The notes beneath the pieces are model-generated. The model worked only from the letters and a program-made list of their open reading frames with translations, was not told the origin of the DNA and ran no database searches. From Thermoplasmatota archaeon (lineage in GTDB: Archaea > Thermoplasmatota > DTKX01 > DATEUP01): DNA of 58,852 nt. The stretch lies in NCBI GenBank assembly GCA_035283065.1, contig DATEUP010000275.1:1-58852 (forward strand), written 5' to 3'. Positions 10-44,726 of this stretch are shown piece by piece. Position numbers and translations under genes: made by a program. Each line of letters opens with the position of its first letter. The first letter of the stretch is position 1.

Positions 10-1905
10 GTGGCGTTCCTGCCGTGGACCTACGACCGCGCCCGCGGCGTGTGGCTTGCGCCCTCGAAGGACCTGTCGCTGATCATGCAGGCGTTCCCCG
101 GTGTGCGAATCCAGATGAACAAGTCCCTCGGGACCGAAGTAGCGCAAGCGAAGGAGAAGCGCGATGCTTCGGCGGCCGTGACGGCGCGCGGGGATCTTTT
201 GATCCCGGTCCCGGACGGCCTGGAACTCATGCCGTTCCAGGTCGCCGGCGTCGAGTGGATCGAGCGGTGCAGGGGGCGCGCGATGCTCGGGTGCGATATG
301 GGAACAGGCAAGACCATGCAGGCGCTCTCGTGGCTAAACCTTCACCCCGAGCATCGGCCGGCGGTGGTCGTATGCCCAAACAGCGTGAAGATAAACTGGC
401 AGCGGGAAGCGGAGAAGTGGTTGATCGACCCAAACGACCGCGTCGAGGTGGGTAAGGGCGGAAAGCCCAAGCCCGCGATCCTAAAGTCGGCCACCGTGCT
501 CGTGCTCAACTACGACATCCTGCACCGATGGGTAGAAGCGCTCGGGAAGGTCGCCGTCGCCATCCTCGACGAAGTTCACTACGTCAAGAGCCGCGACGCT
601 AGGCGGTCGGGTGCGGCCAAGACCCTATGCCGCAACGCCCGGCATGTCATCGCGCTTACCGGAACCCCGATCCTAAACCGTCCGGTTGAGGTCTGGCATC
701 AGGTGCATTGCATCGACCCGACCATCTTCCCCAACTTCGAGGAGTACGCCCGCGAGTACTGCGGCGGGAGCGGAAAGGGAAGGCGCGACCCGAAGGGACA
801 CGCCAATCTCGGGCAACTCGAGGAAGTGCTTCGGACCCGCGTGATGATTCGACGACGCAAGCAGGATGTACTCGACGATCTTCCCGAGAAGCGGCGCACC
901 ACGGTGTTGATGGAAATACCCATCACCGAGTACCAGGCGCACGAGCTGGAAGCGCGCGGCCGGGCCTCCCGGTTCAAGGAACTCAAGGAGGCGCTGCGCG
1001 GGATGCTAGAGGGCGTCGAGGATGAGGACGAACGCAAGCGGATACACGCCCAGAGCGTAGAGGGCCAAGAGGTCCCCAAGCTCCACGGCGCGCTCATGGC
1101 CGACATCGAGAATCTCAAGCAGGGCGCGGTCAACGCCAAGTACTCTCAGGTGATCGACTGGCTGAAGAACGCCGTCGAGCAGACGGACAAAATCATCGTG
1201 TTCGCCCACCACATCGCAATCCAGGACCGGCTCTTCAACGACCTTGAGGGCTACGGCGCGGCGCGGATCGCCGGGGGGATGAGCATCCAGAAGCGGCAGG
1301 CGAACATAGACAGGTTCCAGACGCAGGCCGACTGCCGGGTGATCGTCTGCTCGTTGGGCGCCGGCGCCTACGGGATCAACCTCCAGGCCGCCTCGCAGGT
1401 CGTGTTCGTCGAGTTGGGATGGAACCCGTCGCATCACGACCAGGCCGAGGACCGCGCGTACCGCAAGGGCCAGAAGAACGCCGTCAACTGCTGGTACATG
1501 GTCGCGCAGGGGACCATCGAGGAAGAGATCGCCCGGTTAATCGAGGCCAAGCGCGCTATCGTCTCGGCCGGCCAGGGAGACGTCGACCCCTACATCGAGC
1601 AGGACGGGATCATGGAGCGGGTGATAGACTACCTCGCCGGCGGGCCGACCGCGCATGTGGACCTGCCCGAGGCCGATCCCGACGACCCCGATTTTCACCC
1701 AAGTGAACAAGAAGCCGAGGATTGTGAACAGGACCCCGCCGAAGGTGAACAGGGCCCCGTTGAGGGAGAACGGCCCGGGCCTACGGAGCCCGCGGCGCCG
1801 CCCGATGAACCTGAACCGACCGACGAATCAACGCCGCCCGAGACAGCGCCTCCCGAAGACGAGCCGGAAACCGATCCAGAGGCTCAAGGCCCCGAAGGCC
1901 CCTGA
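10..1905 (+). CDS. SNF2/Rad54-family helicase/translocase; true 5' end probably at 58779 across the window junction
   Basis: 631-aa ORF opening at GTG. Motif I CDMGTGKT, motif II LDEVHYVK and LTGTPILNRP are present. C-lobe reads GINLQAASQVVFVELGWNPSHHDQAEDRAYRKGQ. The last ~80 aa form an acidic Pro/Glu-rich tail. Confidence 0.9.
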   Translation: MAFLPWTYDRARGVWLAPSKDLSLIMQAFPGVRIQMNKSLGTEVAQAKEKRDASAAVTARGDLLIPVPDGLELMPFQVAGVEWIERCRGRAMLGCDMGTGKTMQALSWLNLHPEHRPAVVVCPNSVKINWQREAEKWLIDPNDRVEVGKGGKPKPAILKSATVLVLNYDILHRWVEALGKVAVAILDEVHYVKSRDARRSGAAKTLCRNARHVIALTGTPILNRPVEVWHQVHCIDPTIFPNFEEYAREYCGGSGKGRRDPKGHANLGQLEEVLRTRVMIRRRKQDVLDDLPEKRRTTVLMEIPITEYQAHELEARGRASRFKELKEALRGMLEGVEDEDERKRIHAQSVEGQEVPKLHGALMADIENLKQGAVNAKYSQVIDWLKNAVEQTDKIIVFAHHIAIQDRLFNDLEGYGAARIAGGMSIQKRQANIDRFQTQADCRVIVCSLGAGAYGINLQAASQVVFVELGWNPSHHDQAEDRAYRKGQKNAVNCWYMVAQGTIEEEIARLIEAKRAIVSAGQGDVDPYIEQDGIMERVIDYLAGGPTAHVDLPEADPDDPDFHPSEQEAEDCEQDPAEGEQGPVEGERPGPTEPAAPPDEPEPTDESTPPETAPPEDEPETDPEAQGPEGP

Positions 1906-2719
1906 TTACCAGGTCGGCAACCTCGATCCCGTCGATTATGATCCTGCCCCGGATTGCGTTGAGGTTGGTCTCTCGGCGGGCTATGCCGAGGGGTTGAGTT
2001 CCGCGTTCGCGCGCCCGGGCCGCCTCATCGCGGATTGCCGTCAGTTCGACGGCGATGCCGAAGATCCGGCGCGAGGCCGTTTGTCTGGCCTCCTCGTCGA
2101 AGCGTTCGCCGGCTTGCTCGATCACCCGCGTTTGGGCGACGAACTCGTCTACCAGGCGGGCGGCCCGGTCGGCGCGCGCGATCAGACCGGCGACGTCGGC
2201 GGCGCGTCCGGCCAGGTGTTCGCGGGCGGCAAGCGAAACCTCGGGACGTTCGACGGCATCGGCGGCCTCTACGTCCACGCGTGCTTCCCCCCGCCGTCCG
2301 GCCGCTAACTGCGCCTCGACCTCTACCTCCAAGAGGGCGTTTTCGATGAGGGGGCGGAACTCTAGCACGCTACCCTCGATGCCGATTTGCGGGATTCCAG
2401 TGAGGCGCCCTAGGATCTGGAGCCTCAGAAGGTCTACCCGGAGCCGCGCTTGATCGAGTTCCGCCTCGGCTAGCCGCGCCGTCGCGCGCTCCACCTCGGC
2501 CATCTGGTTGAAGGACGTGATGCCAGACTTGATCCGCTCGGCGAACTCCGGGGCCGAGTTGGGGAATCGAAGATCGTTGAGCTTCTCGAGGCTTCCGGCC
2601 AGGAGGCGTGCGCGGAAGGCGCGCTCTTGGGACTCGGATACCTCTACCTGGAGGCGGATCGATTCCTTTAGGGCGCGCAGGTACGCTTCGATCAGGTCGT
2701 CCTCGAACGGGATGGGCAC
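1781..2719 (-). CDS. family-A paralog (helical, unknown function) ending ...VHRAAPRAP
   Basis: 312-aa ORF with GTG start. N-terminus VPIPFEDDLIEAYLRAL aligns with MPNGQEDLADQYRDTL of 13281-14138. The 3' 125 nt lie antisense to the helicase tail. Confidence 0.7.
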   Translation of the reverse strand: MPIPFEDDLIEAYLRALKESIRLQVEVSESQERAFRARLLAGSLEKLNDLRFPNSAPEFAERIKSGITSFNQMAEVERATARLAEAELDQARLRVDLLRLQILGRLTGIPQIGIEGSVLEFRPLIENALLEVEVEAQLAAGRRGEARVDVEAADAVERPEVSLAAREHLAGRAADVAGLIARADRAARLVDEFVAQTRVIEQAGERFDEEARQTASRRIFGIAVELTAIRDEAARARERGTQPLGIARRETNLNAIRGRIIIDGIEVADLVIRGLRGLEPLDRFPARLREALSRAALIRRSVQVHRAAPRAP

Positions 2720-4370: not shown

Positions 4371-4386
4371 GGTACGCATTCGTACC
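4371..4386. promoter_or_regulatory. operator-like palindrome GGTACGCATTCGTACC
   Basis: Perfect GGTACG-N4-CGTACC. Lies 83 nt upstream of the first rightward gene. Confidence 0.6.
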
Positions 4387-5935: not shown

Positions 5936-5964
5936 TTGACAAACGCTGCGTCAGAAGGTACGGT
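5936..5964 (+). promoter_or_regulatory. sigma70-like promoter TTGACA-N17-TACGGT
   Basis: Perfect -35 at 5936-5941. The -10 (5959-5964) is embedded in the operator-like site. Lies 31 nt upstream of ATG 5995. Confidence 0.45.
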
Positions 5965-5972
5965 ATCGTAAC
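5957..5972. promoter_or_regulatory. operator-like site GGTACGGTATCGTAAC (1 mismatch)
   Basis: Matches GGTACG-N4-CGTACC at 15 of 16 defined-plus-spacer positions. Overlaps the -10. Confidence 0.55.
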
Positions 5973-14138: not shown

Positions 14139-14141
14139 GGT

Positions 14142-15002: not shown

Positions 15003-15004
15003 TC

Positions 15005-26917: not shown

Positions 26918-26940
26918 GTCGCCGCGCGCCGCCCTTCGGA

Positions 26941-27681: not shown

Positions 27682-27687
27682 GGCCCC

Positions 27688-27694
27688 TATAATA
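27688..27694. promoter_or_regulatory. overlapping opposite-strand -10 hexamers (TATAAT plus strand, TATTAT minus strand)
   Basis: Read directly in the 44-nt divergent gap. The minus-strand hexamer lies 7 nt from GTG 27681. Confidence 0.4.
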
Positions 27695-27725
27695 CCCGCG
27701 AAGCCTCGCCGTGCAAGCAGACGCT

Positions 27726-29761: not shown

Positions 29762-32700
29762 GTGGCCCAACCGCTTCCGCCGCTTTCGGCCATCATTCCG
29801 GCCGAGGCGCAGACGCCCGCCCTTGACGTTGCATTCGCCGCCGGTAACGTCTCCCTCGGCCGGTTGATCCGGGAGGACGGCGAGCGGGTCGACGAGGCCA
29901 TCACCACCTCGACGGAACTCTTGCAGGCCGCCCGCCTCGGCATCGAGGCCCTCTTCAACACCGGCCGGCAGGTCACGGTCGACCACATGGCCGGGTTGTG
30001 GTGGGGTCTTCGCCTGTTTGCTCGACTCCTTCAGACAGACCGCAAGGTGCCCGCTTCTGTGCTCGAAACGGCCAACTCGGAGGGTGCCGCAGGCGGCCTC
30101 TTCCTGCGCCGGCTGACAGCGGGACCTGCCGAATTCGCGGGCGCCCCCGTGCGCCTCTTCGAGCGGGTCGCTGCGGCGGATCAAGCCGGCGCTCTCGCCT
30201 TCGTCGACCACCTTGGGACCGTTCTAGCCGGGGAGCCTACCGTCTCGGACGGGGCGGTAGAGATCGCGGCGCTTCCCCCGCAGGACCCGGATGCCCTTGC
30301 CCAACTGATCAAGTCCGACGAGAGGTTCAATTACTTCCAGATCCGCGACGGGGTTGGACGCGCGGCCGACACCAGAGACATCACGGTCGAGCTGGTACGC
30401 AACCTCGACGGAACCTTCGCGCCGTCCTCGAGCGTTCCGCAGTTCATCTTTGTGCGGCTGGGGTTCGCGCGGAACCCCGACTCCCTGGAGGTGATGCGCG
30501 ATCTGCTCTTCGCCTCCCTGGACTCGAAGGCGCGGGAGGTCACCGGCAAGCTCAAGGAGGTGGTGGACCGTATCCGCGCGGCCAAGGACACGCGAGAAGA
30601 CGCGGCCCTCACCAACCTCAAGCGCGACCCCAAGGCCCGCCAGCGGCTGATCATTGCGATCCGCCGCGCCCGGGACGCCCAGGCGATCCCGGCTCTCACC
30701 GCAGCGCTCGAAGACAAGGACCCGCAGGTGAGGGCCGCGGCGGCCGACGCCCTCAAGCGCCTCGACGCCAAGGAAGCCATCCCCGCACTTGAGAAATCGC
30801 TCACGGACAAGGACATGGCCGTTCGCGAGCAGGCGGCGCTCGCGCTGGCCTTCCTCGGCGCCGGCGCCGCGGCCCTGATCAAGGCGTTCAAGGGGTCGAA
30901 GGGGCGGGGAAAGGCAGCGATCATAGAGGCGCAGGGGGTGCTTTTCTTCCAGGCCACCGACGATGAGAAGAAGTCCATCCTCGCCAACATCGAATCGGCC
31001 ACCAAGGACAAGGAACCCGAGGTGCGAATCGGCGCGCTCTTGGCGGCCCGGGCCACCGAGGACCCGACGCTGACCATCGACCTGGCCCGTCGCGCCCTGG
31101 CCGACAAGGACGAGGCGGTGCAAGCGGCGGCCATCGATGTGCTTCGGGATTTGGCGGTTCGCCTGCCGGAGAACACCAAGGAGGTGTCCTCCATCCTCAA
31201 GGGGGCTATCAGTGATCTTGCGAAAAACCCGGTGCTGCAGGAACGGGCGCAAGACGCCGTGGAAGGGTTCAACGACGATCCGGGAGAACGGGTAGGAACC
31301 TCCGTCAACGGCGTCCGAAACGTCGGGGCCTTCGTTCTCGCCTTCGACGTGTCGGGTAGCACCCTATCGGACCCGGACGACGTCGAGCGCGGGAAGACCA
31401 AGGCCGAGGCCGGGTTCAAGCAGATGAAGGACCTGATCAACTCCCTCAAGCCCAACCAGCGATTCAACATCATCCTCGCCTCGACCGTGGCCTTCGACGA
31501 GGGCATCGCCATCTTCAAGTCGCGTAGGCTTTCCGCCCGCGACATCGCCCTGCTTGAGGCAGAGGGACGCCTGGTGCCCGGAACGCTCGTTGCCGGCGAC
31601 CTGGTCCCCGAGTCGGTTCTCGCCACCGACCAGAACAAGGCCGCCGCCATCGCGTTCCTCGACCGTTCGCTGGCCTTTCTCACAAGCGACGCCAACCGCT
31701 CCTCGCGCGGCTTCTTCAAGGGGCGATACAACCTCTTCGATTCGATCATCCGCGCCTTCGCCGACCGCACGATCAACAAGCTCTGGTTGGGCGGGGACTT
31801 CAGGCCCACGGCGGGATCTTTGACGGACTCCAACACGATCCTCGACGCCATCGAGGGTTTCGTCAAGTACACCCGCGTGCGGATCGACACGGTTGTCTTC
31901 GGCAGCAGCGGGGTCGACCGCAACCTGGCGACGGACCTGGCCACTTCTTCGCGCGGTCGGGTGGTGGAGCGGTCGGCGCAGAAGATGTTTCCCGACGTCC
32001 TGCCCGGCCCGGTCTTCTTCGCCGACCCCGTCGACATGGAGCAGGACATCCTTCAGCAGGGCTTCAGGGTCTACGAGGACACCGGTAGGCTCCGGGCCAG
32101 TTCCGCGATGGCCGAGCGGATGGAGCGGTCGGCCGACTCGATTGCGGCGACCGCCTCGGTCACAGAGGGCGTTCGCTTCAAGAGCAACCTTCAACTACAA
32201 GCCGCTCAGCTCCGGGCAACGGCCGCAGAACTGCGGGTGGTTGCGGATCGTGAACTCGTGAGGGCGTCCGATTCGTCGGTTCGCCTGTCTGATATCGGGG
32301 AAGACGTGCTTCGCCGGTTGAGGGATCGAGGCGCATCGGAGGAGGCGGTCAAGTCGGTAGAGGAAGCCCTCACAAGTTATCGCCTCATCCTAAGACGCGA
32401 GGGCGAACTCGTCGGCAATGCGCGCCAGATAGAAGCGTTCTCCTTCGCTCGATTTGACTTTACGCTTTTCCCCCAGATGTCCGGGCGCATCGAAGGGTCT
32501 CGCAGGCGGGTCGAGGAATCCTCTTCGCGCATTGCGTTGATCATCACGGCGGCCGAGCAGTCGATCCAGACGGAAAACTCCGGCCTGCTCCAAAGCCAAC
32601 TTGCCGCCATACGGATGGCATCCTCCGAGAGCAGTCAAAGGGCGATGGTGATGTCCCAGGATGAGGGCACGGCATTTGCGCGGTTCGCCGTACGCCTCGA

Positions 32701-32857
32701 TGAGAAGATCGCTTCGACGAGATCGTTGTGGGACATCCTCGCTCGCCCCGCCCGCCCCGGCATCGAAGAGGTGACCGAGCAGGTAGGCCGCGCCCTTCGT
32801 CAGGTGAGGCCGAGAGACGGCTTCCCGTTGAGAAGAGCCGCCCCACGTGCCCCATGA
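29762..32857 (+). CDS. tail-motif protein (1031 aa) with HEAT repeats and a vWA-like domain, ending ...LRRAAPRAP
   Basis: HEAT_PBS-like repeats: AIPALTAALEDKDPQVRAAAADALKRL and AIPALEKSLTDKDMAVREQAALAL. MIDAS-like FVLAFDVSGS. Confidence 0.75.
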   Translation: MAQPLPPLSAIIPAEAQTPALDVAFAAGNVSLGRLIREDGERVDEAITTSTELLQAARLGIEALFNTGRQVTVDHMAGLWWGLRLFARLLQTDRKVPASVLETANSEGAAGGLFLRRLTAGPAEFAGAPVRLFERVAAADQAGALAFVDHLGTVLAGEPTVSDGAVEIAALPPQDPDALAQLIKSDERFNYFQIRDGVGRAADTRDITVELVRNLDGTFAPSSSVPQFIFVRLGFARNPDSLEVMRDLLFASLDSKAREVTGKLKEVVDRIRAAKDTREDAALTNLKRDPKARQRLIIAIRRARDAQAIPALTAALEDKDPQVRAAAADALKRLDAKEAIPALEKSLTDKDMAVREQAALALAFLGAGAAALIKAFKGSKGRGKAAIIEAQGVLFFQATDDEKKSILANIESATKDKEPEVRIGALLAARATEDPTLTIDLARRALADKDEAVQAAAIDVLRDLAVRLPENTKEVSSILKGAISDLAKNPVLQERAQDAVEGFNDDPGERVGTSVNGVRNVGAFVLAFDVSGSTLSDPDDVERGKTKAEAGFKQMKDLINSLKPNQRFNIILASTVAFDEGIAIFKSRRLSARDIALLEAEGRLVPGTLVAGDLVPESVLATDQNKAAAIAFLDRSLAFLTSDANRSSRGFFKGRYNLFDSIIRAFADRTINKLWLGGDFRPTAGSLTDSNTILDAIEGFVKYTRVRIDTVVFGSSGVDRNLATDLATSSRGRVVERSAQKMFPDVLPGPVFFADPVDMEQDILQQGFRVYEDTGRLRASSAMAERMERSADSIAATASVTEGVRFKSNLQLQAAQLRATAAELRVVADRELVRASDSSVRLSDIGEDVLRRLRDRGASEEAVKSVEEALTSYRLILRREGELVGNARQIEAFSFARFDFTLFPQMSGRIEGSRRRVEESSSRIALIITAAEQSIQTENSGLLQSQLAAIRMASSESSQRAMVMSQDEGTAFARFAVRLDEKIASTRSLWDILARPARPGIEEVTEQVGRALRQVRPRDGFPLRRAAPRAP

Positions 32858-32896: not shown

Positions 32897-33226
32897 ATGA
32901 ACTTCATCGGTGTACGCAACGAGGTCATCTTCTACTGCATGGTGTGGGAGAGCCGCGCCGAGCCGACGACCGGCTCGTTCGTGGAAATCCTGCGGGAGCA
33001 GTTCGCCCGCATCGCGCAGGAAGCGAAGATGGCGGTCGCCGAGGTCATCCAGTTCTGCCCGCCGAAGCTGCGCGACATCCTCCTCGGGCCTCCCGTGCCC
33101 CCGGTGACCCCGCCGGTCTCCCCGGTCTTCGCCGAGATCATCGTGATCGGCGAGCCCGAGGAACCGCCGATGTTCCCCGAGCGGGCACCGAACCCGGCCG
33201 GCCCGGGCCCCGTGACCCCGACCTAG
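32897..33226 (+). CDS. small protein (109 aa) ending ...RAPNPAGPGPVTPT
   Basis: AAGGTGAGG SD. Pro-rich C-terminal half. Confidence 0.6.
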   Translation: MNFIGVRNEVIFYCMVWESRAEPTTGSFVEILREQFARIAQEAKMAVAEVIQFCPPKLRDILLGPPVPPVTPPVSPVFAEIIVIGEPEEPPMFPERAPNPAGPGPVTPT

Positions 33227-34056: not shown

Positions 34057-34806
34057 TTACGGCGCCGTGTGCTTCAGCGTGACGACCTTGTTCAGGTCGG
34101 GCAGCACGGCGATGTTGACGAACGTGGCCGGCGGCGGCAGCGCGACGGCCGCATCGACCATCTTGGTGATCAGATCGTCGAGTTTGGCGTTCGCGTCCGT
34201 GACGCTGAACCCCTTGTCGACGGCGACCCCAAGCTGGACCAGCAACTGGACGATGTTCGACCGCAACACACTTCGCATCAGAAGCGAGGTGATGTTGGTC
34301 GGGAGGAGGCCATCGATCTGGTAAGAACCGCGGGTGTACTTCACTCCGCGGCGGTCGCCTGTCATGGCCGACGCCGCGTAGGGTCCCGGTCCTCGTTCTC
34401 CCAGAGCGGAGGTGCTGGTCATCTCGAGCGTGAACGCCACGCGCGAGAGCCAGTTGTTCGCCTTCTCGTCGACCTTCCGCTTGAACTCGTCTCCGTCGTT
34501 GGCGAAGACGTTGTCGTGGGCCTGCTTGGCGCCGACTTCCGAAGCCTCCATGTTGAATTCCATGAAGCGCTTGATGAAGTCCGCGCTACGGCCGCGCCGC
34601 GACACGAAAGCGGGGTTGACGAAAGGCCCGAAAGCGATGGCCGCTTCCTTTGCCAGAGCCGTCCAGTTCGCCGTCGCCAAATCCCACCGCTGCTTCATGA
34701 TGCTCGCCGCGTTCTTCAGGTTCTCCGTGAACCGCGTGAAGATTTGCGTCGGCACCACGTTCACCGGCGTGACCGGGAGGGTCGCCTCGAGGATGACCGT
34801 GGGCAT
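34057..34806 (-). CDS. monocistronic 249-aa protein, candidate abundant structural protein
   Basis: Only gene in the window with its own promoter-like region, a GGGAG SD and a canonical terminator. No recognisable family. Confidence 0.7.
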   Translation of the reverse strand: MPTVILEATLPVTPVNVVPTQIFTRFTENLKNAASIMKQRWDLATANWTALAKEAAIAFGPFVNPAFVSRRGRSADFIKRFMEFNMEASEVGAKQAHDNVFANDGDEFKRKVDEKANNWLSRVAFTLEMTSTSALGERGPGPYAASAMTGDRRGVKYTRGSYQIDGLLPTNITSLLMRSVLRSNIVQLLVQLGVAVDKGFSVTDANAKLDDLITKMVDAAVALPPPATFVNIAVLPDLNKVVTLKHTAP

Positions 34807-34839: not shown

Positions 34840-34856
34840 GGCTGGACCGTCCAGCC
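34840..34856. promoter_or_regulatory. 17-bp perfect palindrome GGCTGGACCGTCCAGCC
   Basis: Read directly. Lies between ATG 34806 (minus) and ATG 34881 (plus). Confidence 0.5.
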
Positions 34857-34865
34857 TCCGAGGGC

Positions 34866-34872
34866 TATAGTA
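34866..34872. promoter_or_regulatory. overlapping opposite-strand -10 hexamers (TATAGT plus strand, TACTAT minus strand)
   Basis: Plus strand: TGGACC-N17-TATAGT. Minus strand: TTGCAT-N17-TACTAT. Confidence 0.4.
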
Positions 34873-34880: not shown

Positions 34881-35165
34881 ATGGACCGCATGCAAGGGTT
34901 TTGGTGTTTTCGCGGCGCAACCGCTTGGCGGCTAAGGCGTTGCTGGTACGCCATCGTACCTCTGGCGTTTTTCGCACTGATGGCCGCCTGCTCCGGTCTC
35001 CAGCTTGAACGAGCCGGCGATGCGGCGGGCACGGCCGCCGAGGTGGCAGGAACCGCCGGGGCCGTTACAGGAAACCCCCTCTTCCTGGGCGCCGCAATCG
35101 CTTTGGGGGCGATCAGCGCGGGCCTGACGGGGGTTGGTCGCCTCATGCGCTCGAGGGGGAAGTAG
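34881..35165 (+). CDS. putative lipoprotein (94 aa)
   Basis: Basic n-region RLRR, hydrophobic core, lipobox-like ALMAAC, C-terminal hydrophobic segment. Confidence 0.5.
   Translation: MDRMQGFWCFRGATAWRLRRCWYAIVPLAFFALMAACSGLQLERAGDAAGTAAEVAGTAGAVTGNPLFLGAAIALGAISAGLTGVGRLMRSRGK
34945..34960. promoter_or_regulatory. operator-like palindrome GGTACGCCATCGTACC
   Basis: Perfect GGTACG-N4-CGTACC. Lies inside the 5' part of the lipoprotein ORF. Confidence 0.55.
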
Positions 35166-35522: not shown

Positions 35523-35675
35523 ATGGCAAGCGCCGAGGAAGTCTTCGCCCGCCAGAACGAGATCAATCGCGACAGCCGCACGTTCACGTCGGTGCGCCCG
35601 GACGGCCCGGACCAGCGGCGCTCGGAGCGCCGGCCCAACCCAGCGGCGCCCGGCCCGGTGACGCCGACGTCCTAG
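35523..35675 (+). CDS. small protein (50 aa, below track cutoff) ending ...RRPNPAAPGPVTPTS
   Basis: AGGAGG SD 6 nt upstream. Hand-translated as MASAEEVFARQNEINRDSRTFTSVRPDGPDQRRSERRPNPAAPGPVTPTS. Confidence 0.55.
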   Translation: MASAEEVFARQNEINRDSRTFTSVRPDGPDQRRSERRPNPAAPGPVTPTS

Positions 35676-35699: not shown

Positions 35700-36509
35700 T
35701 TGGGCATCGGAGACAGAACCGAGTTGATCTTCCTTCGCCTTGCGTTCGCGCAGGACGGAACCGGCATCGACCCGCGCCAGCTCCCGCCCAAGCAAGCCTT
35801 CGGCGAGAAACCGAAGGGGAGGGACCGACCGTTCAAGGTGTACGAGGATACGTTCACCGCGCAGGCGAAGAAACTCGCCGATGAACTGTCCATGGAGAAG
35901 GACCAGAAAGCGCGCACGCGCAACAACGGGTTTCGTATGCGCTCGCTGGTTCGCAAGATCGACGACGCCACGGCAGAGGTCAACTCCCTCGCCGCCTCGG
36001 GGCCGGTGCCCCCGGCCAAGGTGGCCCAGATGTGGATGGCCCTCAACCTCTTCGCCCGCACCATCGGCAATCCGAAGACGGGAGGGGGCGGGGCGATCGA
36101 CGTCAACGCCTCGGACTTTGCGTCCGCGACCAGTTCCTATGACGCGGCGGTGCGCGCCCTCAACGCCGGCTTCAAGTCCCTCGGCACGGACCAGAAGACG
36201 CGCGTGGAGACGTTTAGTCTTGCGTTGGTCCGCGAGTTCGAGACAATAGCCACGGAGGTCTTGGACAGAGAAGTCGTGCGAACCATCGAAGAACAGATCG
36301 AGGTGCTGACCGACGAGGTCAAGGCCCGCCCGCGTCCCGTTCGCGCGCCGCGCGAGGAACGGCGGACGGGTCCGGTTGTGCCCCCGCCGTCTCCCCTGCC
36401 CGACGAACCAGTGCCCCTACCCGAGACGCCGCCTCCTCCCGAAGAGGAGCCGCCGCCCATCCCGCCGCCCCCCATCCCCCAACTGGAGCCCGCGCCGGCG
36501 GCACGCTGA
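35700..36509 (+). CDS. hypothetical protein (269 aa), Pro-rich C-terminus ending ...EPAPAAR
   Basis: TTG start per the track. Weak match to the tail motif. Confidence 0.55.
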   Translation: MGIGDRTELIFLRLAFAQDGTGIDPRQLPPKQAFGEKPKGRDRPFKVYEDTFTAQAKKLADELSMEKDQKARTRNNGFRMRSLVRKIDDATAEVNSLAASGPVPPAKVAQMWMALNLFARTIGNPKTGGGGAIDVNASDFASATSSYDAAVRALNAGFKSLGTDQKTRVETFSLALVREFETIATEVLDREVVRTIEEQIEVLTDEVKARPRPVRAPREERRTGPVVPPPSPLPDEPVPLPETPPPPEEEPPPIPPPPIPQLEPAPAAR

Positions 36510-37222
36510 TGGCCAACCGCGTCAACCCCTTCACCGGCGAGGCCGTCGCCCTCGACGTCGAAGACCTGGTCCGCATCGGGCCGCAGGACAGTTCCAGGAG
36601 CAACCGCCAACCCACGCAGCAGGACTACGACTTCCGCGACCAGCTCCGGGCGCGCGTGCGTCGGTGGGACGAAATGCGGGCCGAACTGCGCGGCATTGTC
36701 GACACCTACCGCTTCCTCATCGACAAACTCCCCGTCCAACGCGACAGCCTGCTCCAGCTTTTCAACGAGCAGTTCGCCGCGGCCGTGAAGGCCGGCACCT
36801 CCGACCCCAACGTCGGCCTCGTCGAACGCCCGGACGCCACGTTCGGTCTCGAGACGCCGTCCATCAAGGCGGCGATGGCCGCCGAGGTCGGGCGCGTCCG
36901 CAAGGAGAAGGGGATCAACATCACCGAGTCGAGCGTGTTCATGCGCGGCGACTTCCGGCGCCTCTCCGAGGTCCAGAGGCTCGTGATCGAAGACGCCGGC
37001 TTCATGATCGGGGCGTACAGGGACGCGGTGCTTCTCGAAGACCGTACCCGCGGCGCCGAACGCCTCGACGAGGCCGACCGAATCGGCCGGCGCATCGTAG
37101 ACGACATCGACAGCGTGACGGGTGGTCTGTGGTCGAAGACCATCAAGGAACTGCCCGGGCCCGAGGCCGAGAAGGGGGTCAAGCCCGTCGAGAAAGAGCA
37201 GAGGGCGGCGCCGAGGCCATGA
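36509..37222 (+). CDS. tail-motif protein (237 aa) ending ...EQRAAPRP
   Basis: The ATG shares a nt with the upstream TGA. Confidence 0.7.
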   Translation: MANRVNPFTGEAVALDVEDLVRIGPQDSSRSNRQPTQQDYDFRDQLRARVRRWDEMRAELRGIVDTYRFLIDKLPVQRDSLLQLFNEQFAAAVKAGTSDPNVGLVERPDATFGLETPSIKAAMAAEVGRVRKEKGINITESSVFMRGDFRRLSEVQRLVIEDAGFMIGAYRDAVLLEDRTRGAERLDEADRIGRRIVDDIDSVTGGLWSKTIKELPGPEAEKGVKPVEKEQRAAPRP

Positions 37223-40200
37223 CGAACTTCGCACGAGGAGAACTGCCCCCGGGGCCGGCCCTCCCCCCCGAGTTCCGCGCCGGGCCGTCGACGACCCTAG
37301 GGACGCTGTCTCGGGAATTCCCCACCCTCGACGGCGAGGACATCGCCAGACTCCTCACCGTAGGCTTCCCAGAGGACGCGATCTCGCGCGGAGTCCACGA
37401 GGCCATTCGCAAGCGCCTCATCGACCAGACGACCGGCCTTATCGTCGGGATGCCCGGGGGCGGGCCGCCGCTCATCTCCACCCCCATCGAAGTGGACTTC
37501 TCCCGGTTCCTGGGCCAGCTTCGGGCCTCCGACGCCTACTACCGCCGCCCGGACGTGGTCGCCCGGATGCAGGGCGTGCTCGGGGTCAACCTCGGCGGCC
37601 AGGGCAACCGCGAGAAGCGCATCGGGGAGGCGCTGAACAGCCTGCTCTTGATCCTCCCGGACCTCCAGGAAGCGGTGAACGACGTCTGGGAGTTGACGTC
37701 CATCACGGGCGAACCCGCCAACCTCGACGACCAGCCGATCAATGTAGACGACGAAACGTGGGACAACGCCGTCCGCCACTTCGACCCCGACGAGGGCTTC
37801 TATTCGCGGCTCTTCGACATCATCGAGCCGCTGGTCGAAGAGGTCGCGCAGCACCCGCTGGCGACGTGGATGAGGTGGGGGATCGAGAATATCTTCTCGG
37901 CCATCGTGCGCCTCGCGGCGGTGTACGGCTCCGAGGTGACCCTCGAGCAGCGTTTCCCCGGCTTTACCGAGGCCAACCTCGACCCGCTGGTCGGCGATCT
38001 CTACGAGTACATCCGGTCGGAGGCGCAGCAGATCAAGGATCTGCCGGCCGCCAACGCCGAGCACCCGACCATGTTCATGACGATGGCGGCGTGGCCCTTC
38101 CCGCCGTGGTCGGCGTTTTCCTTCGTGGAGAACCAGGACATCCTTTCGGCCAAGAGCCTCCCCGAGATTCACCGGCGGATCATGATGGGCTCGGGCCTCG
38201 TGGATTCCCTCTTCGCCCTCATCGACGGCGGCAACGTCCCGGTGCGTCCGGGCCCGGGCGGACGCCCGAGGTTCCGCCCCCGGGAACTCTCGCCCGAACG
38301 GCAGGCCCGGATGCTACGGATGGTCGAGCAGATCATGCGCGCCATCGTCGACCCGCGCATGCCCCTGCGCGAGCTCCACAAGACTGTGCCTTTGGCCGTG
38401 TCGAGCAGTAACGCCCGCTTCTTGAACATCCTCGCCGAGGCAGGCAAGGACGGCCCGAGGGCGACCGAGCGGTTCTTCGAGCAGCTTTCCTTTTCGGCCG
38501 AGACGCGAGCGGCGAGCATCGCCAACATCCGCACGTCGGTGATCCGGTTCATCGAGTCGAGCTTCGCCTTCCCCAAGGGCAACGTCCTCCGACAGGTCAT
38601 CGTCGCCACGATCAAGCGCCTCAACGCCCAACTCGGCTCGCGCCTGAAGCTGACGCAGTCGATCCCCACCATCCCAGAGTTCCCGCCAGCGCAGGAGACG
38701 GTCGAATCGACCCTCGACGTGATCGCCTCCATGCGCGAGGGAGCCGGCGTTTCCGACCCGCTCGGGTCCGTGCCGCAGGGGATCAACAACGCCACCACGC
38801 GCGCCCTGTTCGCGCGGATCCAGCGCCTCGAACAGGCCATCGAGGCCGAGGCGACCAAGGGGCCGGGGGAACCCCTCAGCATCCCTCGGGTCGACCTCGT
38901 AACGGATGAAATCCTCCGCGCAGTGTTCCCGGCGGGGTCCAAGACATCCCTCATCAGCGACCGGGACCTGATCCAGGTGGTCGACCGCCTCTCGAAAGTC
39001 CGAATCCCCCTCGAGACGTACAGCAGCGCCTGGCGCAACTCCATCGTGAACCTCAATCTCCGCAGATTCGCCCTCGGCGGCAGGCAGCCCGCCGCCACCA
39101 TCAAGCGGTTCGAGAAGGAAGCCGTCGCCGACCGGGTCAACAAGGGCGCCAACAAGGTCGCCGAACGCGAGGCGACGGAGGTCGCGGAGACGAGCACGCC
39201 GGCGGCGGCCGCCGAGTCGACCCAGATCCGCGAGGAACTCCAGGGCACGCCCCCCAAGTCCGAGGCCAGGTCGCGGCTGGAGAACGCCCTCAAAATCCTC
39301 CGGCGCAACTCCCGCGGCCGGTCGCCCACGGCGTTCTCGGGCGCGGACATGATCTTCGTCTCGGCCGCCATCGCGTCCTTCGCGGTCGACAACCTGACCG
39401 AGGAGGAGTTCAACGCCATGCTCGCGGCGGATCTTCCCCAGGCGCTGGAGCCGGGCGAAGAGGTTATCACGCCCATCACCGTGTCGCCGGAGCTTACGCC
39501 GGCGAATCGAATCGGCCCTATCATCGAAAGGCTTCGGGCGAAGGGCGGCTTCGAGAAGGAGTCGTCAATCAAGGCGAGGCTGATCCTCGGCAACATCCAA
39601 AGCGCCATCATCGATCCGGCTACGGGATCTCGCGCGCCCCGCCAAAACCTAGAGCGCTTCCGGGCCGCGATCCAAGCGACCTTTGAATTGGCGAATCCCC
39701 GCGCCAGTCTGGTCGAGGGCAAACTGTCCGAGCGAGATTTTGCGACAACACTCCGCGCCGCCCTCGGCTTCGCCGGGCGGGCTCGGATCGGAAGCGACGC
39801 AGTCCGCCGCATCCTCGAGGCCGAGACCCGGCGCGTCCTCGAAGAGCCGGTCGAGACCCCGCAGGTCAACGAGCCGCGCGCGGACGTCGTCAAGCAGGAG
39901 TCGGCCCGCGTCGAAGAGCAGATGGCCGAGGGCGGCGGGAGTCCGCGCGATGAGGGGCGCTTCCGAACCGAGCAGCGGTCGCGGTCGAAGAACCCCGAAA
40001 CCTACCTCGGCTCGAAGATGCTCGGCGAGTCGTCGCCCTACATCGCCAAACTGTCAGAAACCCTCGGCGCCGTGTTCCGCCGGTCCTCGAGCGAGCGCGA
40101 GCAGACGGAGGTGAGACTTGCGAAGGCGAGCGCGATCAAGGCGTCCCTCGAGGCGGAAATCATCAACCGGCAAATCGACGTGGATGCCGCCCGGCAAGCC

Positions 40201-41259
40201 AAAGATGCCGCCCGACAAGCCGGCGATGCCGTCCGCGAAGACGTTCAGGCACGCAGGGAGCGGGCGAACCAGCGCGCACTCGACAAGGCGCGCGATCTTC
40301 TGACCATCTCCAACCGGGACATCCGGGAGGCAGAGCAGAGGCTCGTCTTCGTGCAAGCCTTCGAGAAGCTGCCGCTCGTGGCCCGACTTGCCGTGCGAGC
40401 CGGCAACCTCGTCACCCTCAAGGCCATCCGGCTTTTCTTCACCGCTCAGATCCGCGCCTTCCGCGAGGCCACCTCGACGCAGGAGCGCGCCTTTCCCGCG
40501 TTCGCCATGCAGCAGGGCACCGAGTACTTCTTCGGGTGGGGCATCGGCTTCATGATCGCGTTCTTCAACTTCCCCGCCGTCGTGTTCAAGGGCTTGATCC
40601 TCGGCACGAGCATCGGAAAGCGCAGGGAGATCGAGGACCTGATCAAGGCCGGCGACATCGAGGCCGCGCAGAAGGAACTGGCGGAAATGAAGGATCGCGC
40701 CGCTTCGTTCCGCGCGTTCAACGAGAGCGCGCTAGGGACCGTCGTTCGTATCCCGAGCCTTTCCTTGTTCGGCCTGCTGATCGACGCGGGAATCGAGGAC
40801 ATCGAGAGCTTCGTCCAAAACGCCGAAGGGACGCTGATCCCGAACCAGTTGGCCTTCAAGGCCCGCCGCCTCGCCGATCAGGTGAGGCAGGTCGACTTCC
40901 GGTTGCGGGACCTCGAGCTCGACAAGCCGGTCGAAATCCGGTCCATCCTCCGCGATCTTCGCGCCGCCTCCGATGGCGTCAAGGAGGACGGGCGCGTCAT
41001 CATCGCGCCGGTTCTGCGGGTGACCCCGGAGGATCGCCGCGCCATCGACGATGGGACCATCACGGTTCGTCGCGCCATCGAACTTCTCGGAGAAGAGGAC
41101 CTGATCCGGTCCCTTCAGGTGCCGGTGCCCGAGGAAGCACCTCGGCCGCCCGAAGAGATCCCGGTGCCGCCAACGCCCGAGGAGCAAAGCCGTCTGGAGC
41201 GGCAGGCTATTGAGGAGCCGGAGTTGTTCTTCCTAAGAAGAAGGGCGGCGAGGGGATGA
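37219..41259 (+). CDS. giant tail-motif protein (1346 aa) ending ...LRRRAARG
   Basis: ATGA overlap. Begins MTNFARGELPPGPALPPEF. No recognisable domain. Confidence 0.75.
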   Translation: MTNFARGELPPGPALPPEFRAGPSTTLGTLSREFPTLDGEDIARLLTVGFPEDAISRGVHEAIRKRLIDQTTGLIVGMPGGGPPLISTPIEVDFSRFLGQLRASDAYYRRPDVVARMQGVLGVNLGGQGNREKRIGEALNSLLLILPDLQEAVNDVWELTSITGEPANLDDQPINVDDETWDNAVRHFDPDEGFYSRLFDIIEPLVEEVAQHPLATWMRWGIENIFSAIVRLAAVYGSEVTLEQRFPGFTEANLDPLVGDLYEYIRSEAQQIKDLPAANAEHPTMFMTMAAWPFPPWSAFSFVENQDILSAKSLPEIHRRIMMGSGLVDSLFALIDGGNVPVRPGPGGRPRFRPRELSPERQARMLRMVEQIMRAIVDPRMPLRELHKTVPLAVSSSNARFLNILAEAGKDGPRATERFFEQLSFSAETRAASIANIRTSVIRFIESSFAFPKGNVLRQVIVATIKRLNAQLGSRLKLTQSIPTIPEFPPAQETVESTLDVIASMREGAGVSDPLGSVPQGINNATTRALFARIQRLEQAIEAEATKGPGEPLSIPRVDLVTDEILRAVFPAGSKTSLISDRDLIQVVDRLSKVRIPLETYSSAWRNSIVNLNLRRFALGGRQPAATIKRFEKEAVADRVNKGANKVAEREATEVAETSTPAAAAESTQIREELQGTPPKSEARSRLENALKILRRNSRGRSPTAFSGADMIFVSAAIASFAVDNLTEEEFNAMLAADLPQALEPGEEVITPITVSPELTPANRIGPIIERLRAKGGFEKESSIKARLILGNIQSAIIDPATGSRAPRQNLERFRAAIQATFELANPRASLVEGKLSERDFATTLRAALGFAGRARIGSDAVRRILEAETRRVLEEPVETPQVNEPRADVVKQESARVEEQMAEGGGSPRDEGRFRTEQRSRSKNPETYLGSKMLGESSPYIAKLSETLGAVFRRSSSEREQTEVRLAKASAIKASLEAEIINRQIDVDAARQAKDAARQAGDAVREDVQARRERANQRALDKARDLLTISNRDIREAEQRLVFVQAFEKLPLVARLAVRAGNLVTLKAIRLFFTAQIRAFREATSTQERAFPAFAMQQGTEYFFGWGIGFMIAFFNFPAVVFKGLILGTSIGKRREIEDLIKAGDIEAAQKELAEMKDRAASFRAFNESALGTVVRIPSLSLFGLLIDAGIEDIESFVQNAEGTLIPNQLAFKARRLADQVRQVDFRLRDLELDKPVEIRSILRDLRAASDGVKEDGRVIIAPVLRVTPEDRRAIDDGTITVRRAIELLGEEDLIRSLQVPVPEEAPRPPEEIPVPPTPEEQSRLERQAIEEPELFFLRRRAARG

Positions 41260-44200
41260 GCGCAGGACGCCACCTGCCGTTCTTCTTCGTGCCGGGTCCG
41301 GGCGGCGACGGGGCCGCCACCGCCGGCCTGTTCGTCAAGATCGACGAGGGGCGCTTCGCCGAGATCACCCCCGAGGACCTTGAGGCCGCCTTCGGCGAGG
41401 GGTTCGACGACCTCGAAGCCATCGAGATCCGGGACGCCGTCGTGGCGCTCTCGCTTCAGAACGCTTTCAAACTTCCGCCGACGCCGGGGATCACCGCGCG
41501 TCCCCTCGACGCGACCACGTTCGCCGACATCAAGCTGATCATCGAACGCCGGCAGTTCGCCCGCGACCGCGGAGACGAGGCCCTCAACTCCTCATGGTCT
41601 TTCGAGTTGGCCCGCGTGCTTCAGGCAACATTCCTTGCGCGCGTCGGGCCGGCCGGCGGCCTCGCCCGGGGCATCGGCATCACGGGTGCAGCGTTCCCTC
41701 TCGCGCGTCCCGACGTTGAGGACGTCACGCTCGATGACATCCGCGCCCTCAACGACGTGGAAAAGGCCCGGTTCGACGAGCATCTCAAGGGCATGGACGC
41801 CTATATGGCCCGCGTCAACGAGGCGCTGGCGGCGTCGATGAAGGTGAAGATCACCGAGCAGGCGCCCGTGTTCGAGCAGATCATGAAGGCCATCGACGAA
41901 CTGGCGGGGCCGGCCACCGAGGAACTGATCGAGGTAGCGCCCACCATCGCCCTGGTTCGGTTCCTCTCGGGAGGCGTCGACCCGGACCCGGACGGCCCCA
42001 GGCCCGAGAACATCGAAGACTACATCTGGGATCAGTACCGGGCGCTCTTCGCCTCGGATGGTCTCTTCACCCGGCTGGCACTCGTCAAGGACAGGATCGT
42101 GACCCTGCTGCCGCGGCACACGGGCCGCACGAAAATCTTCAACCTGCTTCAGGGGGACCTTCCGGTAGAGACCGAGCGCGAGGTCGGAGACGCCGAGGTC
42201 CAAAACGAGCCGGCGACCGAGGGCGGCGCTGGCCTCCTGCCCCTCATCGAGTACGCCGAGGTGCTCGGCGAACTTCTTCCTCAGATGCAGACGGTCGAGG
42301 ATCGCCTGGCCGTCATCGACGCCCTAAACGCCATCCGGGGGGAGATCGCCGCGACGGTCAAGAAGATCCGGGCCGTGCCCGGCGAGCTGTCGGCGAACCC
42401 GCCGAAACTGGCGACGTGGTCGCGGTTCATCCGGCGTTTCTCGGACTTCGCGCCCGAGGTCCAGCATCAGGCGTTCCTCATCATGGCCACGCGCGGCAGG
42501 CTCGAGGAGCAGGAAAACACCGAGACGGCGCTGCTTATCGAGGAGGGGTTCATCGTATTCCTGTCCGTTATCGCGGCCATCGCGGTCCTGCGGGGGGTTA
42601 AGACGGCGGGCACCAAGCCCCTCGGCCCGCGCGCGAGACTCAACCCGACCGTCAACCCCGTGGGCCAGCCGATTCTTTCGCGCCAGATGATCACGCGTGC
42701 GCAGCAGTTTACGTCGGCCGTCGAACGAACCGCCCGCGGCGCCTCCAAGATCAATCCCCCGGTCAACGACATGGAGACGAAGTTGTCGGTGTTTACCGAG
42801 CTTCGCAACGTCGCGCTTCGCGGAAACACGCGCCAGCTTTTCGAGGCGGCCGTCCAGGCGAGGGCGCAAAACCTCATCGACACCGGCGGGATCACCGCCC
42901 GGGGCGGGAAAGTGGTCAGGGCTTCGGGGATCGGCAAGATCACCCTCGATTGGGCCGCGAGGCTCATGCAAGCAGGAACAGCGAAGCGGGCGGTTGAAAC
43001 GATTCTTCTGGACCTCCGAAGCACCATCGTCACCGCCAACTCGATCGCCGAGTTCTCCGCGCTCCAGGGCAAGCCCCTGCCCCCGCGCAACCTCGCGGAG
43101 GCAGACGCGTTCACGCGCCAGATCCGAAGAACGATCCGGCAGGCGACGGGCGACCCGGATACGGCCCGCTTCAATCTGCAGAGCGTGGTTGAGTCGGCGG
43201 TACGGGAGGCGATCCTTCTGCCTGAGCAGCCGATCATCTCGAAGCAGGCACTGGCCAGGATCCTGTCGGCGGTTCGGGCGTCGGCGCGTCTGGCCGGCCT
43301 CACCGAGAGTCAGATCAACGGCCTCTTCGGCGAGGCGTTCCGCAACCTCGGGGTGATCAGGGTCTTCGAGCGGCCCCTCCCGGAAGTCCCGGAGATCGGG
43401 CCGATCGAAGTCGATATACCGATCAAGCCCTTGTTCTTCACCGCCCACGCCGTCCCGCCGCCGCTTTCGGACGCGATTCCGATGTCGCCCAACGTGCTCC
43501 CCGACCCGGTCTTCGTCCTCGACCTTTCGGCCGGGGTTTCCGGCGCCGCGGCCGCCGGCGGCAACCCCCTCCCGTCAAAAGACACCCCCGAGGGGGCCGC
43601 GCTGGCGCGGGGCGTGGAGGCGGTTTCGGCTACCAGGCCCACAGGGGCCGACACGGCCGCGATCACCTTCCGGCAGGTACTTGGCGCCCCGGTTTCGGCC
43701 GCTCTTCGCGGCCTGCTTTCCCCCGCAAGCCTGTTGGCGGCCCTCGAGGAAGCCATGGCCTACGGGGCCTTCCACCTGGCCCCGGCCGCGGTTCGGGGGG
43801 TGGTCGTCGAGCTCGTCGAAGCATTCAACTTGGGACCGTTCCTTGGAACGCCGCCGGTCCCCCCCGAGGTCGTCCTGCCCGTGGAAGACCTGGCCGACCG
43901 CTTCGTCGCCTCCCCGGACGGCCGGCACGAGGAGGTCGGACTCGCATGGGCGCAGGTCGTAGCGCGGGTCTTCCGCTTGTTCGAGACCCCCAACGACCCG
44001 GTGAACTTCCGGGCCCTCATCGGCGCGGCCAACCAGGGCGACCTTCTGGTCGCGGTCGGCGCCGGCGGGAACCTCCTCGGCAAGTCCCTCAAGGTCTTCA
44101 AGGGGATCGTCGGGATGGCCTCGCGGATGATGATCCGCCGCTACCTCAAGGGCGCCCCCCTCGGCAACCCCGACCCCGTCGCATGGCACTTCGTCTTGCA

Positions 44201-44726
44201 GGAACTCTTCTGGACGCCGGCCATGACCCTCCCCGGCATGGAAGGCGTGGTGGCCGAACTCGCGGACGCCGCGACGCTTGCGCGCGCCGCATGGCTGCGC
44301 GCTGTCGAGGCGAACGAGCGGTCCGATCCTCTCGGGGCCGCATCGCACGTCCGGGGCGCGGCCGGCCTGATCGACGAATATCAGCGCCTGTTTGATCAGG
44401 CCCGGCCCGCGCTGGAGTTCGGCGGGTGGGCGGACGCGGTCGAGGAGGACCTTCGCATGCTTCGGGACGCCAACGCGGCCGCGGCGGAACTGGCGGCCGC
44501 CGTCGCCTCGCGGCAGGATCAAGAACGCCGGAGGCTCCTCGAGTTCAACGGCCCGGCCCGCATGGAGCGCATGGCCGAGGAAGCGGAGCGAACGGGGGCA
44601 GAGGCCGAGGCGGAAGGCGCCCTGCCGCCGCCGTCGAAGGAATTCGCCTTCCCGGTGGGGCCGCCGCGGGGGCCGCTGGCCCAACGAGCACCCCGGCAAC
44701 CGCCGCGCGCCGCCACTCGCGGTTAG
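41256..44726 (+). CDS. giant tail-motif protein (1156 aa) ending ...PPRAATRG
   Basis: ATGA overlap. Begins MSAGRHLPFFFVPGPGGDG. No recognisable domain. Confidence 0.75.
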   Translation: MSAGRHLPFFFVPGPGGDGAATAGLFVKIDEGRFAEITPEDLEAAFGEGFDDLEAIEIRDAVVALSLQNAFKLPPTPGITARPLDATTFADIKLIIERRQFARDRGDEALNSSWSFELARVLQATFLARVGPAGGLARGIGITGAAFPLARPDVEDVTLDDIRALNDVEKARFDEHLKGMDAYMARVNEALAASMKVKITEQAPVFEQIMKAIDELAGPATEELIEVAPTIALVRFLSGGVDPDPDGPRPENIEDYIWDQYRALFASDGLFTRLALVKDRIVTLLPRHTGRTKIFNLLQGDLPVETEREVGDAEVQNEPATEGGAGLLPLIEYAEVLGELLPQMQTVEDRLAVIDALNAIRGEIAATVKKIRAVPGELSANPPKLATWSRFIRRFSDFAPEVQHQAFLIMATRGRLEEQENTETALLIEEGFIVFLSVIAAIAVLRGVKTAGTKPLGPRARLNPTVNPVGQPILSRQMITRAQQFTSAVERTARGASKINPPVNDMETKLSVFTELRNVALRGNTRQLFEAAVQARAQNLIDTGGITARGGKVVRASGIGKITLDWAARLMQAGTAKRAVETILLDLRSTIVTANSIAEFSALQGKPLPPRNLAEADAFTRQIRRTIRQATGDPDTARFNLQSVVESAVREAILLPEQPIISKQALARILSAVRASARLAGLTESQINGLFGEAFRNLGVIRVFERPLPEVPEIGPIEVDIPIKPLFFTAHAVPPPLSDAIPMSPNVLPDPVFVLDLSAGVSGAAAAGGNPLPSKDTPEGAALARGVEAVSATRPTGADTAAITFRQVLGAPVSAALRGLLSPASLLAALEEAMAYGAFHLAPAAVRGVVVELVEAFNLGPFLGTPPVPPEVVLPVEDLADRFVASPDGRHEEVGLAWAQVVARVFRLFETPNDPVNFRALIGAANQGDLLVAVGAGGNLLGKSLKVFKGIVGMASRMMIRRYLKGAPLGNPDPVAWHFVLQELFWTPAMTLPGMEGVVAELADAATLARAAWLRAVEANERSDPLGAASHVRGAAGLIDEYQRLFDQARPALEFGGWADAVEEDLRMLRDANAAAAELAAAVASRQDQERRRLLEFNGPARMERMAEEAERTGAEAEAEGALPPPSKEFAFPVGPPRGPLAQRAPRQPPRAATRG

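Follow-up and report, generated by a model that had tools for sequence, protein, structure and literature searches.

A C-Terminal R-A-A-x-R Tail on Ten Mostly Unrelated Proteins of a 59-kb Phage-Like Element

The Tail and Its Bearers

The window, i.e., the whole stretch of 58,852 bp that was analysed (contig DATEUP010000275.1 of GenBank assembly GCA_035283065.1; GC content 66%), holds a phage-like element in which ten proteins, mostly unrelated to one another, end in the same short peptide, R-[AG]-A-[APT]?-R-x(0-2)-COOH, here called the tail. A previous sequence-only reading had ascribed such a tail to eleven proteins. All eleven open reading frames (ORFs) are free of internal stops and end exactly as had been quoted; ten of them fit the pattern, and the remaining one (35700–36509) is a weak match only, as had been flagged at the time. 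The variants are RAAPRAP, found three times, and RAAPRP, RGAPRP, RGAARP, RAARS, RAAR, RAARG and RAATRG, found once each. The core is mostly preceded by a Pro/Gly-rich or basic stretch; an example of a tail peptide of 12–15 residues is GFPLRRAAPRAP.

One bearer, a helical protein of 312 amino acids (aa) without a family match, is encoded on the minus strand (1781–2719), with RAAPRAP at 1784–1804 and the stop codon at 1781–1783. Its GC1/2/3 values of 0.76/0.45/0.79 are of coding type, the gene was called on all six assembly loci shown, and the exact protein was present on 23 contigs read. The 3' end of this gene, including the tail, overlaps the 3' end of a convergent SNF2 helicase gene by 125 nucleotides (nt; 1781–1905), and both overlapping frames are kept in every assembly seen.

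The other bearers are encoded on the plus strand. Three tandem paralogues, designated family A, have the N-terminus MPNG and consist of 285 aa (13281–14138; RGAPRP at 14118–14135), 286 aa (14142–15002; RGAARP at 14982–14999) and 279 aa (15005–15844; RAAPRAP at 15821–15841). They are followed by a 1409-aa protein with a poly-Pro tract and hydrophobic stretches (21043–25272, the start possibly at 21004), whose tail, (R)RAARS at 25255–25269, is invariant across all strain variants read; by a 397-aa protein (28530–29723) ending in (R)RAAR at 29709–29720, with Arg as the last residue; and by a 1031-aa HEAT-repeat protein (29762–32857; HEAT_2, E = 7.8e-19) with RAAPRAP at 32834–32854. The doubtful member is a Pro-rich protein of 269 aa (35700–36509), which ends in …EPAPAAR at 36492–36506, the first Arg being missing. 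A 237-aa protein (36509–37222; RAAPRP at 37202–37219), a 1346-aa protein with hydrophobic segments near aa 1104–1133 (37219–41259; (RR)RAARG at 41242–41256) and a 1156-aa protein (41256–44726; RAATRG at 44706–44723) complete the set. Start codons are ambiguous for some bearers (21004/21043, 13203/13281, 15005/15119), and the tails are unaffected by this. Taken together, the bearers comprise about 6,700–7,000 aa or 34–36% of the window, in agreement with the earlier estimate of about a third, and are distributed over five transcription units. In the HEAT-repeat protein, a D-x-S-G-S-T stretch (…AFDVSGSTL…) at about aa 540–560 is, by eye, reminiscent of a von Willebrand A (VWA) domain or metal ion-dependent adhesion site (MIDAS); VWA was not reported by Pfam at E ≤ 0.01.

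The family scans covered about 40 ORFs or proteins, i.e., all called proteins from 200 aa upwards and many others of 100–200 aa. Pfam, PHROG, NCBIfam and PADLOC gave no assignment for any of the tail bearers, except the HEAT repeats mentioned above, and a PDB sequence search with the 1409-aa and 1156-aa proteins yielded nothing. That the bearers are mutually non-homologous apart from the three family A paralogues, as the sequence-only reading had held, was borne out by all-against-all BLASTP and, for the 312-aa protein versus family A, by hhalign; a homology between these two was rejected at an hhalign probability of 0.1%. All proteins of 200 aa or more with an assignment to replication, recombination, methylases or glycosyltransferases are tail-less. 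The tail marks nearly the whole set of the large "dark" proteins of the element.

Enrichment of the Tail over Chance

The core was found ten times at the C-terminus and four times internally in the 77 called proteins (17,310 aa), with an expectation of 0.05 for terminal positions (Poisson P about 5e-20). With shuffled whole proteins and with shuffled ends (last 30 residues) the averages were 0.06 and 0.11 terminal matches, respectively, with a maximum of 2. When all six frames were examined, 106 open frames had 200 codons or more, and 10 of these, without exception the genes claimed, ended in the pattern; among 1450 shorter frames, 2 did. A test which does not presuppose a motif, namely counting protein pairs with a common 4-mer in the last nine residues, gave 19 pairs versus 2.0 ± 1.4 in the null set (maximum 10). 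As an external control, 120 IMG/VR loci with a mean GC content of 64.5%, preselected for RAAPRAP followed by TRR (stop or TGG), contained 5 matches in 1592 long frames, no locus having two; these loci came from a search of IMG/VR with the back-translated tail pattern, which had produced single chance matches only.

The residues R, A, P and G outnumber all others (9.2, 12.5, 6.1 and 7.7%, respectively), and the pattern might be taken for a compositional accident of R/A/P-rich sequence at 66% GC. This is contradicted by all controls and by the conservation described below, and its probability is negligible. Whether control ORFs of equal composition show the same pattern had been raised already in the sequence-only reading; shuffled sequences, other frames and GC-matched loci do not. 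The tail is real and anchored to the C-terminus, far beyond chance.

Conservation and Selection at the Peptide Level

A single relative of the element was found, a contig of 58,790 bp in Logan SRR22388270 with about 71% aa identity, whose proteins are 51–85% identical to those of the window. Apart from this contig and near-identical strains, word-based searches of 5.8 billion proteins detected no relatives. A HMMER profile of family A recovered only the two members of the relative from 1.84 billion representative proteins; four protein alignments used as queries found no relatives in IMG/VR, JGI metagenomes and GTDB genomes, and GenBank phages contained no DNA or protein match to the element.

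The orthologues in the relative keep the tail, which settles the question, also raised beforehand, of whether homologues would lack a conserved C-terminus. The HEAT-repeat protein and its orthologue, which likewise ends in LRRAAPRAP, are 54% identical overall, whereas their last ten residues (PLRRAAPRAP) are identical, with three of the five core codons changed synonymously; expressed as fractions, identity is 1.00 in the last eight residues, 0.53 in the preceding 30 and 0.54 in the whole protein. The 237-aa protein and its 235-aa orthologue both end in RAAPRP, which is kept though the nine residues before it differ. RRRAARG of the 1346-aa protein corresponds to RRRAARA in a 1334-aa orthologue (P0002), and RAATRG of the 1156-aa protein to RAAQRS in a 1207-aa orthologue, which is 52% identical and where RAAQRS follows a divergent Pro-rich linker. 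The 397-aa protein, ending in (R)RAAR, has a 256-aa counterpart ending in LARSAARS; these two can be aligned over only about 70 C-terminal residues and are 20% identical overall, as compared to 62% in the last eight residues. The two family A members of the relative (P0007 and P0008) end in RGAPRVP and RAAPKRP, and the three of the window in RGAPRP, RGAARP and RAAPRAP; between paralogue 1 and P0007, identity is 0.75 in the last eight residues, 0.37 in the preceding 30 and 0.36 over the whole length. Thus, in diverged pairs the tail persists where the remaining sequence has changed, the last eight residues being far better kept. The ending APAAR of the doubtful member (35700–36509) is conserved as well, but inside a generally conserved region. 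On non-orthologous genes of the relative, 41 kb of which were read, no tail was found.

A comparison of the core codons of window and relative showed 13 identical, 12 synonymous and 3 non-synonymous codons, and two of the latter are artefacts of register that arise from the RAAR/RSAAR pair. Within the window, too, the codons for the common tail residues vary between copies, and the DNA 3' of the stop codons has no sequence in common between bearers. Since there is no DNA likeness after the stops and codons turn over synonymously while the residues are kept, selection acts on the peptide, as had been proposed in the sequence-only reading; a DNA repeat or terminator was rejected for the same reasons. 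These comparisons show strict purifying selection on the tail as a protein sequence.

Several properties of the tails could point instead to a translational element, i.e., slow termination at Arg-x-Pro-stop, translational coupling, or a constraint from the ribosome-binding site (RBS) of the next gene, with the peptide as a by-product. Six of the ten tails end in Pro-stop, the same count as given before, as compared to 5 of the remaining 67 proteins; several tails contain the rare codons AGA/AGG; and for five tails, rather than the three noted originally, the next start codon is no more than 4 nt away or is overlapped (ends 14138, 15002, 36509, 37222 and 41259). Four bearers, however, are the last of their transcription unit or are met by a convergent gene (ends 1781, 15844, 25272 and 44726), so that their tails are not explained by a downstream RBS, and two further bearers are separated from the next gene by about 40 nt. 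The Shine-Dalgarno (SD) sequence of this genome is GGAGG at –13 to –6, which the tails do not supply, and a by-product of the RBS was therefore rejected; synonymous turnover with residues kept argues against any signal at the RNA level. We regard a translational role as very improbable. In the six P-type tails, slow termination at Pro-stop may occur as a side effect.

As for arrest peptides of the SecM type, which had been suggested earlier, the ending R-A-x-P indeed resembles RAGP, and the six Pro-stop ends fit. Unlike in SecM or TnaC, four tails are free of Pro, as are the orthologues of these tails, and conservation rests on Arg and Ala through synonymous changes, the conserved part R-A-A-(x)-R not being the last residue. 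A SecM-type upstream arrest sequence (about 17 residues, FxxxxWIxxxxGIRAGP) was not present, and the 40 residues before the core showed no common pattern. The suggestion was rejected because the upstream sequence is absent and Pro is not invariant.

Family A and Structural Prediction

Family A consists of the three tandem genes at 13281–15844 in the window and of two copies in the relative (L002 10001–11736), each of which is about 23–24% identical to paralogue 2 of the window. The members are only 20–36% identical; nonetheless, MPNG at the N-terminus and R-[AG]-A-[AP]-[RK]-x0-1-P at the C-terminus have been retained in each of the five distinct sequences. A strain variant of paralogue 3 (P0005) ends in RAAPREP. 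AlphaFold2 (AF2) predicted for paralogue 2, from five sequences, a bundle of five long helices (predicted local distance difference test, pLDDT, 81.5; predicted template modelling score, pTM, 0.74), with a pLDDT below 50 in the tail region, residues 269–286. In this model, the family A tail is an exposed flexible end, as would be expected of a linear motif. Foldseek searches with the model against PDB and BFVD gave nothing below E = 0.1; the top rows were generic long helical bundles (tripartite alpha-pore-forming toxins, F-BAR, tape measure) and were not counted as evidence.

Gene Content of the Element

In independent assemblies the same element measures 58.6–59.0 kb. An ORF continues across the ends of the window, from 58811 to 1905, and in other assemblies the HNH and C5-methylase genes, which in the window are found at the far end, precede the helicase (657 aa there). 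A complete genome of about 59 kb, circular or circularly permuted, is therefore probable. Phage-type genes recognised were, besides the SNF2 helicase, a SbcC-like ATPase (phrog_1499), DNA methylases (Dam, N4/N6, C5), several small methyltransferase-like genes, an exonuclease, a Rad52-like annealing protein, a RusA-like protein, a DnaD-like protein, a Vsr/DUF559 endonuclease and several glycosyltransferases. Neither tRNAs nor Rfam families were found in the window.

SD sequences (GGAGG) are located 6–8 nt ahead of many starts, promoter-like sites are of the sigma-70 type with –35 and –10 elements (TTGACA-N16-17-TATAAT), and three GTG starts exactly 7 nt 3' of a –10 hexamer indicate leaderless mRNAs. 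Because of these three kinds of signal, a bacterial host, of high GC content, appears likely, and an archaeal one, to which the NCBI label "Candidatus Thermoplasmatota archaeon" would point, was rejected; the expression signals of the element are bacterial-looking, and the archaeal label of the metagenome-assembled genome is probably a binning artefact.

A 16-bp palindrome, GGTACGnnnnCGTACC, is present in promoter or intergenic DNA in three perfect and two near-perfect copies (4371–4386, 5957–5972, 20810–20825, 20966–20981 and 34945–34960). With up to two mismatches there are eight matches in all, versus 2.35 expected, the other three being situated outside promoter or intergenic DNA. One copy lies directly 3' of a promoter-like site (34843–34871) at the head of the tail-bearing operon of 34.9–44.7 kb, and another adjoins the start of the gene for the 1409-aa protein. 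The palindrome is probably a repressor operator.

Within the plus-strand block of dark genes, the only gene on the minus strand (34057–34806) encodes a tail-less product of 249 aa with a pI of 9.3. It is the best-conserved protein between the two genomes (85%), and its gene is followed by a strong terminator-like hairpin with a stem of 10 pairs (34032–34009). No family or structural assignment was obtained for this product (pLDDT 37 in a single-sequence AF2 prediction); it is a candidate for the receptor of the tail or for a major structural protein.

Two small, otherwise dissimilar proteins (32897–33226 and 35523–35675, plus strand; L001 5682–6011 and 8311–8466) have a second C-terminal tail, …(R/A)PNPA(G/A)PGPVTPT(S), i.e., PNPAGPGPVTPT(S), which is conserved in the relative. 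Its richness in Pro and Thr, together with the glycosyltransferase genes nearby, suggests an O-glycosylation site or a second docking site.

Four glycosyltransferase-like genes (GT9-like, GT2 and two Glyco_trans_1_2), at 26144–28511 and 46539–47495, flank the main tail-bearing block; in the relative, matches to PS_pyruv_trans and Maf_flag10_N were obtained as well. This arrangement, the small methyltransferase-like genes and the resemblance of the second tail to an O-glycosylation-type Pro/Thr site would be in keeping with the tail as a substrate for modification, at Arg or at the C-terminus, by the glycosyltransferases or the small S-adenosylmethionine-dependent methyltransferases of the element. 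C-terminal glycosylation of virion proteins is known from mycobacteriophages. Nothing, however, indicates that protein, and not DNA or polysaccharide, is the substrate of these enzymes; EarP and NleB, which glycosylate Arg, were not detected; and a modification would still need a purpose, e.g., docking. We consider this explanation improbable.

The same glycosyltransferase genes, and the hydrophobic segments present in several bearers, could be taken as signs that the large proteins are sent to the envelope or to the outside, with the tail as an export or translocation signal read by the secretion or injection machinery of the host. The tails are, like the C-termini of VirB/D4 substrates, unstructured and positively charged on unrelated proteins, their last 12 residues having a net charge of +2.7, versus +0.4 in the other proteins. 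Signals for type IV secretion systems (T4SS) are diffuse charge patterns over 20–50 residues, whereas the tail is far shorter and more sharply defined, with R-A-A-x-R at a fixed distance from the end. Moreover, T4SS genes are absent from the element; among its scanned proteins no coupling protein (VirD4), VirB4-type ATPase, relaxase-like protein or other secretion component was detected. The positive charge thus agrees with a VirB/D4-like signal as had been thought conceivable, the gene content does not, and an export function appears unlikely.

A recognition site for a protease or unfoldase, either a C-degron that times these proteins or limits their abundance, or a maturation site trimmed during assembly, would suit a motif at the free C-terminus which occurs on one class of proteins from several transcription units, and exposed C-termini are recognised by such enzymes, e.g., in the ssrA/ClpXP system or by Tsp. 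Against this, none of the genes recognised in the element encodes a protease, the known bacterial C-degrons have non-polar ends (LAA) and not R-x-P, R-S or R-G, and there is no obvious reason for destabilising all proteins of structural size. This possibility is rated as quite unlikely.

Interpretation of the Tail

Our tentative preference, held at slightly less than even confidence, is to regard the tail as a short linear docking motif at the C-terminus, which would bind to one common receptor, with a particle or morphogenetic complex of the element itself as the likeliest destination. A linear docking motif is suggested by the basic pair, the fixed distance to the carboxylate, the flexible linker, the many unrelated bearers and the purifying selection; a particle is favoured as destination because the bearers are large, unannotated, non-enzymatic proteins of a phage-like genome without recognisable morphogenetic genes. 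Two basic residues, 3–4 positions apart with small residues (Ala, Gly, Pro) between them and 0–2 residues from the free carboxyl end, would sit at the end of a flexible linker, which is often rich in Pro/Gly. Some ten otherwise unrelated proteins could then bind to one common receptor, probably through an acidic pocket, and would be gathered in the same assembly, akin to the action of a cargo-loading or capsid-targeting peptide. Of the roles suggested in the sequence-only reading, a common tag for cargo loading or incorporation into a particle thus fits best. We infer three elements, i.e., the binding to a common partner, the identity of that partner and the virion-like destination.

Several points weigh against this interpretation. 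No receptor for the tail was identified, and none of the proteins of the element that were scanned with Pfam, PHROG and NCBIfam was recognisable as a terminase, portal, capsid, tail or encapsulin protein or as part of a secretion system; given this absence of recognisable structural genes, the particle itself is something we infer. Bearers of 1000–1400 aa with hydrophobic segments are atypical for passive cargo. Only two lineages of the element exist in the collections searched, so that conservation amounts to one comparison plus the paralogues, and the tails of the 1413-aa and 312-aa orthologues lie outside the readable part of the relative. With respect to the targeting peptides compared below, the tails lack the hydrophobic GSL/LGI core of encapsulin peptides and have no Leu/Ile/Val anchor, and they are C-terminal, whereas the signals of phages T4 and P1 are N-terminal.

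A bolder version of the docking motif is possible, though doubtful: R-A-A-x-R-COOH might be the address label of an undescribed pathway of assembly or protein delivery in a new lineage of bacterial viruses or virus-like elements, in which genes for capsid, portal, terminase and tail cannot be recognised. A single receptor, the product of 34057–34806 (minus strand) or a host factor, would collect about ten dark proteins, and the second tag, PNPAGPGPVTPT, would mark two small ones; this would amount to a new class of signal together with a new kind of particle.

Large proteins without detectable relatives or domains make up about one third of the coding capacity of the element, and the tail, shared and conserved, offers the sole clue to their function. 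Should it prove to be a targeting peptide, it would define which of the dark proteins form one assembly, would provide a direct bait for the receptor and the particle, and could serve as a compact loading tag of 5–7 residues for engineering. In addition, the tail allows recognition of the lineage independently of sequence similarity, by contigs with several long ORFs that end in the motif.

Comparison with Known Systems

The C-terminal sorting domains read by sortases, exosortases, archaeosortases and the type IX secretion system (T9SS) have a signature motif ahead of a hydrophobic transmembrane helix and a basic cluster, or consist of a C-terminal domain of about 80 aa. No hydrophobic segment follows the tail, and none is present in the last 40 residues; NCBIfam sorting domains were not matched either. 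The view that the tail is unlike the sorting signals of sortases, exosortases and the T9SS was thereby upheld, and an archaeosortase-type signal was rejected likewise.

The C-terminal targeting peptides of encapsulin cargo are the best precedent for a docking tail. In these peptides, which have a GSL/LGI-type consensus, e.g., DGSLGIGSLKG or PLTVGSLRRGG, a terminal or penultimate K/R touches a negative patch on the shell (PMC7925596). They resemble the tails in being short (about 10 residues), in standing at the very C-terminal end behind a flexible linker, and in being common to unrelated proteins. The bearers of the element, however, are more numerous and much larger than encapsulin cargo, and a shell gene of the encapsulin/HK97 fold (Linocin_M18) was not found among the proteins scanned. 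An identity with encapsulin cargo-loading peptides was rejected, since neither shell gene nor GSL/LGI core was detected.

The capsid-targeting sequences of T4 IPIII and P1 DarB, a second precedent, demonstrate that a short terminal peptide is sufficient to bring phage proteins, even the 250-kDa DarB, into the particle (PMC9024508). They have no sequence resemblance to the tail, and their phages possess recognisable head genes. The N-termini of the tail bearers have nothing in common except MPNG in family A.

The basic C-termini of scaffolding proteins and prohead proteases (P22 gp8, HK97 gp4, 80alpha gp46, SaPI1 CpmB) dock on the inner surface of the capsid, and in 80alpha and SaPI1 the coat-binding end is common to dissimilar proteins. 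The family A proteins are helical bundles of scaffold-like size, a further similarity. Scaffolding ends are helix-turn-helix structures or longer and occur on one or two proteins per phage, whereas here 5–7 residues are found on ten proteins, with no recognisable coat protein. The tail would work like a terminal targeting peptide, but it stands outside every described family of such peptides.

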